64,000 bases of DNA. Source: Candidatus Babeliales bacterium (lineage in GTDB: Bacteria > Babelota > Babeliae > Babelales > JABCYS01). Below, piece by piece: positions 18,339 to 19,309 of this stretch (the first letter of the stretch is position 1; every line of letters begins with the position of its first letter). A program made the translations under genes and the position numbers. The stretch lies in assembly GCA_016929235.1 (NCBI GenBank), contig JAFGJD010000004.1, positions 256,866-320,865 on the forward strand, read 5' to 3'. The notes beneath the pieces are model-generated. The model had not been told where the DNA came from. It did no database searches and was given only the letters and a program-made list of their open reading frames with translations.

Positions 18339-19309
18339 TCATTTAGATTGTCTTTCGCTGTAATCCTGTAACAGTTGGATAAGCTTGGTAGAACGTCTTA
18401 AAGTCCTTGCAATATCTAATGGGGTCCCATCTCTTACATCTCCTTCACAAACAGAGGCGCCATGTTGTAAAAGAAGCTTGATAAGCCTTAAAGGTCAGTT
18501 TTCTCTACGAATTGCAGCGATGAGAGGTGTCTCTGCGTATATATCTCTTGCATTTGGGCTTGCTCCACGTTCGAGTAGAGTTCTAACAACAGCTTCCATG
18601 CTAGGTGTTGAGAATCGAGCCGATTTAATAGCGCGATGTAGTGGGGTGACTCCTTGCCATATTGCTCCAAGCATCGGGGGTCTGTGGTGATAGCCAATAT
18701 CGGTTCTAGCACCGTGTCGAAGCAGTAATGATACCATTTTTCTGATCCCATTTCTGCTGCAAGACCTAAGGCAGAATCCCCTTCCCGGTTAATTGGAGCG
18801 TTGGGACTGACGCCGGCTTGTAATAAAATTTGCATAAAATCATGATGATCTTGGGTCTGTGGTCCATCAGCTTTTATGGGCCCGTCATCTTGTTTCATAA
18901 TCATACTGAGCGCTGTTCTTCTTCTTCCATCTACTTCGTTTACTAATGTTGCATCATGTTCTAGCAATAAGCGGGCTACCTGAGCTTGCTCTCTTGCCTC
19001 TGTAGAAACCCAGAGCGTGCCGAACGAGCTATCTGTGGCGCTATGCAGAGGTGTTCTTCCGAGAGAACATTTTTTCTTAGGATCTGCTTCATTCCTCAAA
19101 AGAAGTCGAGCCGTCTTATGGTCTCCACGACGAGCTGCGATATACAGAGCTGTTTCACCTCCTTCATTTTGTTCATTGACACTCGAAGGTGAGGTGGCAA
19201 GAATCCGTTCTACTTCAGCTCGATCTTGCTGTTCAACCGCTTCGTGAATAGGCCTACTCAGGATAGTGAACGAGAATCCAAGCGTAACAAGAATAGCTGT
19301 AATATCCAT
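18339..19309 (-). pseudogene. ankyrin-repeat gene disrupted by a frameshift and an in-frame TGA
   Basis: Ankyrin reading continues from the 335-aa ORF frame (..GDSALGLAAEMGSEK) into the 80-aa ORF frame (MVSLLLRHGARTDI..) across the run at 18737-18741 (A5 on the coding strand). After TGA at 18495-18497, the same frame continues as PLRLIKLLLQHGASVCEGDVRDGTPLDIA, up to TGA at 18339-18341. Confidence 0.7.

Follow-up and report, generated by a model that had tools for sequence, protein, structure and literature searches.

An ankyrin gene that was probably inactivated recently, within a lineage-specific insertion at the mraY 3' end of a Babeliales bacterium

The Dependentiae possess expanded families of ankyrin-repeat (ANK) proteins, most of which bear signal peptides (PMC6561590; PMC4776705). 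Of the 98 ankyrin copies in Chromulinavorax destructans, for instance, 78% have signal peptides (PMC6561590). Frameshifts, premature stops and insertion sequence (IS) elements commonly break the ANK genes of Wolbachia (PMC3563639; Siozios et al. 2013). Here, we describe a broken ankyrin gene, to which we refer as ankPsi in the following, in a 64,000-nucleotide (nt) stretch of DNA from an uncultured Candidatus Babeliales bacterium (Dependentiae/TM6; JAFGJD010000004.1, positions 256,866-320,865). This whole stretch is called the window, and all coordinates are based on it. We consider it probable that ankPsi is an ankyrin gene with a signal-peptide-like N-terminus, the last of a two-gene operon, which has genuinely and recently been inactivated or at least truncated.

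The likely start of ankPsi is the GTG at 19318-19316, which is also the start used in NCBI's MBN1549380.1, with an ATG three codons further in (19309-19307) as the alternative. From there, the ankyrin frame reaches ...GLAAEMGSEK and then, in the three-frame translation, resumes as MVSLLLRHGARTDI with the register shifted by one base. At this change of frame, the codons on the coding strand are GAA AAA TGG. The position of the deletion can be resolved only to about 15 nt (S-E-K-M-V-S), within which the A run is the most parsimonious, if unproven, site. The resumed frame continues for 80 codons up to ...PLIAAIRREN, where it meets a TGA (18497-18495), and beyond this codon a further 51 sense codons (PLRLIKLLLQHGASV...QDYSERQSK) lead to another TGA (18341-18339). 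A preliminary description of this DNA had reported a frame jump at the A5 run at 18737-18741 and an in-frame TGA at 18495-18497 within one ankyrin gene, and the sequence and its three-frame translation confirm both. It had also described the 51 codons as ending 12 nt from the mraY stop; the codon count holds, but the figure of 12 is a coordinate difference, and the spacer between the stop of ankPsi and that of mraY (18327) measures 11 nt. Likewise, it was right in proposing a single ancestral open reading frame (ORF), the length of which is, however, likely 326 codons, counted from GTG 19318, and not about 323. At its N-terminus, ankPsi is hydrophobic and, judged by eye, signal-peptide-like (MKHMDITAILVTLGFSFTILS). 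It follows its intact paralogue ank527 in an operon-like arrangement, as the last of two ankyrin genes.

Several lines of evidence indicate that the three segments on either side of the lesions once formed one protein. The Pfam families concerned (PF00023 / PF12796) comprise tandem helix-turn-helix-loop repeats of about 33 residues that score above the gathering thresholds, and such repeats are found here. The truncated ORF scores 53 bits against Ank (PF00023), whereas the stitched protein reaches 111 bits in four matched stretches (E 7e-33, with a cut-off of 21.1 bits) and 112 bits against Ank_2, with matches flanking both lesions; the 80-residue segment B matches Ank even when it is searched alone (E 5.4e-9). 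In BLASTP, stitched ankPsi and ank527 yield one colinear alignment of residues 23-325 with residues 203-527 (E 5e-21). This alignment crosses the point of the frameshift without a gap (EGDSALGLAAEMGSEKMVSLLLRHGARTD vs EGHPPLHYAVETNQVSLAQALLEHGARVD), and it continues through segment C, matched to the final 50 residues of ank527, until both proteins end (...LIQLLQDYSERQS vs ...LIQLLRENGGDQA). Similarly, phmmer searches of PDB sequences return single alignments to designed ankyrin-repeat proteins (DARPins) and to ankyrin-1 that run through both lesions, over residues 158-305, with a best E of 8.6e-43. Each lesion separates the two helices of a single repeat, in repeats 5 and 7 of about eight, so that neither can be a natural gene boundary. 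Furthermore, stops occur off-frame in the genes of the window at a rate of 0.062 per codon, at which the joint chance of finding 80 and 51 open codons is about 2e-4; the open stretches are therefore beyond chance. The hallmark of a pseudogene, a disruption with homology continuing past it, is seen both in the alignment with ank527 and in the Pfam signal of the downstream frames. The two independent lesions in what was one ankyrin ORF are thus best read as genuine inactivation. The pseudogenisation put forward in the preliminary description is supported by the three-frame translation, by Pfam, by the BLASTP comparison with ank527 and by the PDB alignments.

Some observations weigh against this conclusion. 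The ancestral state is not observed, but deduced from the repeat consensus and from a paralogue of 29% identity. No orthologue of ankPsi is found among 5.8 billion proteins, where the next match after the gene itself is 32% identical, or in the JGI metagenomes; the comparison with orthologues that had been proposed as a check is therefore impossible at present, and the ancestral state has to rest on paralogue and consensus. The organism has been seen in one sample only, and the two assemblies of the locus considered below may share reads. In addition, a consensus error, or a blend of a minority with a majority strain, retains a small probability. Lastly, with its N-terminus and 4.5 repeats retained, the truncated product could still be functional, and the word pseudogene, taken strictly, is therefore unproven. 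As for the organism itself, the nearest genomes have MraY proteins of at most 67% identity in a protein search; the named ones among them, which belong to Babeliales, TM6 or Dependentiae, bear out the taxonomic assignment. When looked up by exact match, mraY and ank527 return a single sample, and mnmG returns no match. The lineage is a deep, otherwise unsampled one within the Babeliales.

What can be read today is an ORF of 276 codons (19318-18488), composed of 193 genuine residues and an out-of-frame tail of 83 residues that has no Pfam match. GenBank lists it as an intact protein of 276 aa, MBN1549380.1, 'ankyrin repeat domain-containing protein [Candidatus Babeliales bacterium]', on a contig of 321,671 bp. 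This entry is a chimera of 193 real and 83 out-of-frame residues. The value of the present analysis lies mainly in annotation: MBN1549380.1 should carry a disrupted-gene flag. The gene call in the Logan assembly is longer, with 292 aa; it begins at an upstream ATG, in overlap with the ank527 end, and includes the 83-residue tail, as does the GenBank call.

We regard it as possible, though clearly the less probable case, that the gene is truncated yet functional, with the 193 native residues, with or without the tail, still being made and used. This alternative overlaps with that of a recent inactivation, the sole difference being whether selection still acts on the remaining ORF. It draws on the intact ORF, which has a good Shine-Dalgarno (SD) sequence and start, on the operon position behind ank527, and on the annotation as a protein at NCBI. 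Moreover, Wolbachia shows that ANK proteins can tolerate a varying number of repeats (PMC3563639). On the other hand, a break in the middle of repeat 5 leaves an unpaired helix and adds 83 residues without any family match, and the second lesion, further downstream, reveals a 3' part that has lost its protection. A single-sequence AlphaFold model of the 276-residue product was uninformative, with a pLDDT of 38 throughout. Regarding the downstream segments, a start codon is missing from segment C, and the ATG of the segment B ORF (18737) lacks a convincing ribosome-binding site. Scans for promoters and terminators between 17000 and 22200 gave results no better than shuffles.

Far less probable is an assembly or consensus artefact (for example, a miscalled homopolymer, or co-occurring strains merged into a chimeric consensus), with an intact 326-codon gene in the organism. 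It is true that the frameshift sits in a homopolymer and that the genome is a metagenome bin from a single sample. But the independent Logan assembly of run SRR13394437, made with a second assembler, carries the locus with 100% identity over 7,314 nt (7.3 kb), both lesions included. The TGA is a substitution and not a homopolymer problem, and a run of five A is short for a systematic indel error. Nor is there any other broken gene: the housekeeping genes that Pfam recognises in the window (DnaG, RpoD, Lgt, MnmG, MraY, SpoU, TGT, MurB, PheT, LspA, PgpA, MreB, KsgA, UppS and GpsA) match their profiles essentially from end to end, and no frameshift or truncation was found in the other recognisable genes among the roughly 50 of the 64 kb. 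Two random errors in the same 1-kb gene would be very unlikely, while two defects in one dispensable gene and none elsewhere fit decay. We infer that the lesions are biological and not consensus errors.

Least likely of all is that the full-length protein is produced in a regulated manner, with -1 slippage on the A run, be it ribosomal or transcriptional, and read-through of the TGA, or that the A run forms a contingency locus whose length switches at high frequency. A -1 shift of tRNA-Lys on A-AAA would indeed yield exactly ...SEK-MVS.... However, the zero-frame codons at the site are TCA GAA AAA TGG, where tRNA-Glu is unable to re-pair in the -1 frame. No X XXY YYZ slippery heptamer was found in the zero frame at the shift site, no upstream SD-like motif was seen near it on inspection, and the 87 nt downstream of it fold no better than shuffles (z = +0.76). 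Programmed frameshifting at the A run is rejected for want of a heptamer and of a stimulatory structure. Recoding would also require a second, unrelated event at the TGA, a codon that terminates 10 of the 51 long ORFs in the window and is therefore an ordinary stop in this organism. Likewise, a reassignment of TGA (codes 4, 25) or its use for selenocysteine is rejected, because TGA terminates ORFs and conserved genes are uninterrupted under table 11. In phase-variable loci, the ORF or promoter typically contains a simple-sequence tract of 7-8 or more identical bases. The tract of ankPsi is only A5, far below the lengths known to slip, and is one of 209 A5/T5 runs in the window, which also contains 94 A6/T6 and 36 A7/T7 runs. 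The phase-variable expression that had been suggested for this run is thus unsupported.

The broken gene lies within a 3.75-kb insertion that holds three paralogous ankyrin genes, ankPsi, ank527 and the short p202 (Table 1). In the five Babeliales relatives compared (L002, L003, L083, L084 and L085/L086), a conserved block of DnaG-Lgt-MnmG-x-MraY faces an amino-acid permease gene, followed by SpoU, TGT, Vut_1 and MurB, and none of the five has an ANK gene between mraY and the permease. In L083, L084 and L085/L086, the 3' end of the permease gene overlaps that of mraY by 14-44 nt, and in L002 and L003 the two are separated by one small non-ankyrin ORF. The window keeps the same DnaG-Lgt-MnmG...SpoU-TGT-Vut_1-MurB block. 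The comparison supports the notion of an 'island', as the preliminary description had called it, in the sense of a lineage-specific insertion next to mraY. Absence from the syntenic site and direct repeats derived from the target gene are the typical features of an island that it displays; mobility genes, a tRNA target and a deviant composition are missing. No integrase, excisionase, transposase or other mobility gene was found in or next to the insertion, no IS element or prophage is associated with ankPsi, and no tRNA adjoins the insertion, the only one in the window being located at 44918. With 0.456-0.464, the GC content is slightly raised over that of the neighbourhood (0.42-0.44), but lies within the range of the window. 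On the far side, the amino-acid permease is encoded twice in tandem (22082-23464 and 23388-24725, both on the minus strand), with 42% identity between the two genes. The five relatives have one such gene, to which the distal copy (445 aa) is slightly closer.

Table 1. Features of the ankyrin insertion and the adjoining mraY end (window coordinates)
Feature	Position	Strand	Description and evidence
Functional mraY 3' end, left repeat copy	18241..18327	+	WQESKITVRFAIITLLLCLVSLMTLKMR, then stop; repeat search, blastn, tblastn, codon table
Lineage-specific insertion	18328..22081	.	3.75 kb between the mraY and amino-acid permease genes; comparison with five Babeliales relatives
ankPsi, whole ancestral ankyrin-repeat gene	18339..19318	-	326 codons + stop, about 8 ANK repeats, hydrophobic N-terminus; three-frame translation, Pfam, BLASTP
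Segment C	18342..18494	-	51 ankyrin codons: second half of repeat 7 and C-terminal capping repeat; original TGA stop at 18339-18341
Out-of-frame tail	18488..18739	-	83 aa, WYHYCFDT...VEKTDL, TAA stop at 18490-18488; part of the annotated 276-aa ORF
In-frame TGA nonsense codon	18495..18497	-	Between the two helices of repeat 7
Segment B	18498..18737	-	80 ankyrin codons, now out of frame (MVSLLL...AAIRREN)
A5 run (coding strand)	18737..18741	-	Most parsimonious site of the 1-nt deletion (A6 to A5); frameshift inside repeat 5
Segment A	18742..19318	-	Residues 1-193 in the original frame: N-terminus, repeats 1-4, first helix of repeat 5
GAGGAG, Shine-Dalgarno-like	19328..19333	-	9 nt upstream of GTG 19318, 28 nt after the ank527 stop; read from sequence
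ank527, intact ankyrin paralogue (527 aa)	19347..20930	-	Immediately upstream of ankPsi; Pfam Ank 9e-63
mraY relic, ends exactly at TAG	21098..21182	+	58-nt core 86% identical; GAA>TAA and two 1-nt deletions further 5'
p202, third short ankyrin-type gene (202 aa)	21133..21741	-	Pfam Ank_4 2.6e-5; tblastn 36% identity, E 2e-8; N-terminus paralogous to the other two

The insertion also contains a second, decayed copy of the mraY terminus, which corresponds to about the last 29 codons of the gene and lies 2.86 kb downstream of its real end. The two copies form a direct repeat of 58 nt with 86% identity (18270-18327, i.e. the mraY end including its TAG, vs 21125-21182). A gapped alignment lengthens this repeat to about 87-105 nt, and weaker similarity of the relic reaches back to about 21080; at the other end, similarity stops exactly at the stop codon. 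Overall, the copies are 79-86% identical. Over the last 19 codons, the relic differs from the functional mraY end at eight positions, of which seven are synonymous for MraY and one changes V to M, while the 30 nt before the core have accumulated a nonsense codon (GAA>TAA) and two 1-nt deletions. The site is thus flanked by direct repeats, but these bracket only ankPsi and ank527, not p202.

The last 16 codons of p202 (21133-21182, minus strand) run antisense to the relic and encode …NASSESSATSDTAIV. In the relative L085, the end of the permease gene crosses the local mraY terminus in this same antisense frame (…NASSASLRQSSTR), and a convergent 3' overlap with mraY seems to be ancestral at this locus. 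The antisense overlap with p202 probably explains why the core of the relic has been preserved. The hydrophobic C-terminal half of p202 had been considered as a remnant of the ancestral permease, a candidate that was rejected at an hhalign probability of 0.1%; the weak BLAST match between the tails of p202 and the permease arises because both are antisense to the conserved mraY end.

How the relic came to lie there may be explained by two histories. In the first, a cassette was captured that brought its own mraY end, either by one-sided homologous recombination or by an att-type insertion whose recombinase has since gone; in the second, a local tandem duplication was followed by divergence. 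Both fit the observations. Natural transformation is not known in this group of bacteria. The excess of synonymous differences, seven to one, was at one point taken as proof of a transfer from another lineage, and we have withdrawn this argument, as the same bias would result from silent drift of the functional copy alone, with the relic held by the overlapping p202 frame, in which the third codon positions of mraY are the second positions of p202. The bias does not discriminate between capture and tandem duplication.

The relic does, however, give an indication of age. Three disabling lesions within about 30 nt of the relic, compared to two within the 981 nt of ankPsi, imply that the insertion is much older than the inactivation. 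The preliminary description had called the gene recently acquired; this is unsupported, given a relic with a nonsense codon, two 1-nt deletions and seven synonymous differences in 19 codons. The notion of a recently inactivated ankPsi, by contrast, is supported.

We infer the order of events and the mode of insertion as follows. An insertion of three paralogous ankyrin genes, 3.75 kb in length, would have entered at the 3' end of mraY and displaced its original terminus, which survives as the decayed relic. Within it, the ancestor of ankPsi was a single ORF of 326 codons with about eight repeats. Much later, a 1-nt deletion, most simply from A6 to A5, would have broken the frame inside repeat 5, and a point mutation would have created the TGA inside repeat 7. 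The remainder that can be translated comprises residues 1-193 and the nonsense tail of 83 residues, leaving 131 ankyrin codons untranslated. These codons are almost undecayed, which suggests that the inactivation is young. By analogy with the rest of the family, the ancestral protein may have been secreted and acted on the host, in line with the effector type suggested in the preliminary description.

The relic may also record a more general route by which these reduced, host-dependent bacteria acquire genes for interaction with the host. One-sided homologous recombination would place ankyrin cassettes, foreign or duplicated, behind a conserved housekeeping gene, for which the incoming DNA would supply the new end. 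We consider this rather doubtful. If true, the broken ankPsi would be the next step of a birth-and-death cycle at a capture hotspot.

Elsewhere in the window, two leucine-rich-repeat (LRR) proteins are encoded on the plus strand (31322-34507, 1061 aa; 40446-41678, 410 aa), which are further eukaryote-like repeat proteins; the shorter one is preceded by a gap of 686 nt (39761-40445). A bacterial class A RNase P RNA lies on the minus strand at 56534-56884 (226 bits). One ORF of 157 aa (56486-56959, plus strand) lies almost entirely over it and is presumably spurious, and another of the same length (56878-57351, minus strand) overlaps its end by only 7 nt. The stretch of about 900 nt that leads up to a PBP-like gene at 57868 contains short ORFs only. 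Two ORFs of 520 aa each (3782-5344 and 5892-7454, minus strand) have no Pfam match. They are not paralogues (BLASTP E 0.11), and their equal length is therefore coincidental. Lastly, the GC skew is positive in every 2-kb window, even though the minus strand carries most of the genes in the first 31 kb, and the cumulative skew rises monotonically, which means that no origin or terminus lies in the window.

The case of ankPsi is an ordinary one and adds to the known instances of birth-and-death turnover among ankyrin genes of intracellular bacteria. The mraY relic provides a rare internal clock, by which the ankyrin insertion is old and the inactivation young, and it offers a hint as to the way in which accessory genes come into a core block of strong synteny. 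A specialist would find nothing surprising in any of this.

The closest described counterparts are the ANK families of other Dependentiae/TM6 bacteria, such as Babela massiliensis and Chromulinavorax destructans (PMC4776705; PMC6561590), to which our organism is linked by the phylum label on its source record and by its nearest MraY relatives. Like these families, the genes described here have multiple repeats, hydrophobic signal-like N-termini and clustered local paralogues. Unlike them, ankPsi is disrupted, its best match is only 32% identical, and its secretion and host targeting are putative. The ANK genes of Wolbachia (PMC3563639) offer the closest parallel for the disruption itself, as they also belong to an intracellular bacterium, combine frameshifts with premature stops, lose C-terminal repeats and form a family with rapid turnover. 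There, however, disruption was shown against intact orthologues from sister strains, whereas our comparison uses a distant paralogue and the repeat consensus, and no IS element or prophage is involved.

For the insertion, gene capture with displacement of a gene end, as in homology-facilitated illegitimate recombination (PMC3240628) or in the orphan modules of Vibrio type VI secretion system (T6SS)/Rhs loci (PMC5361080), provides a similar picture, with new genes directly after a conserved gene and an orphaned 3' end further downstream. It differs in that the mechanism is hypothetical in our case, where a tandem duplication would leave the same relic and no donor lineage was found. Finally, integrase-borne islands with att-type repeats are comparable in that repeats of the target 3' end bracket accessory genes, here over 2.86 kb, while the target gene remains intact; they differ from this locus in their integrase, excisionase, tRNA or mobility genes, none of which is present here, and the repeats of this locus are only 79-86% identical.
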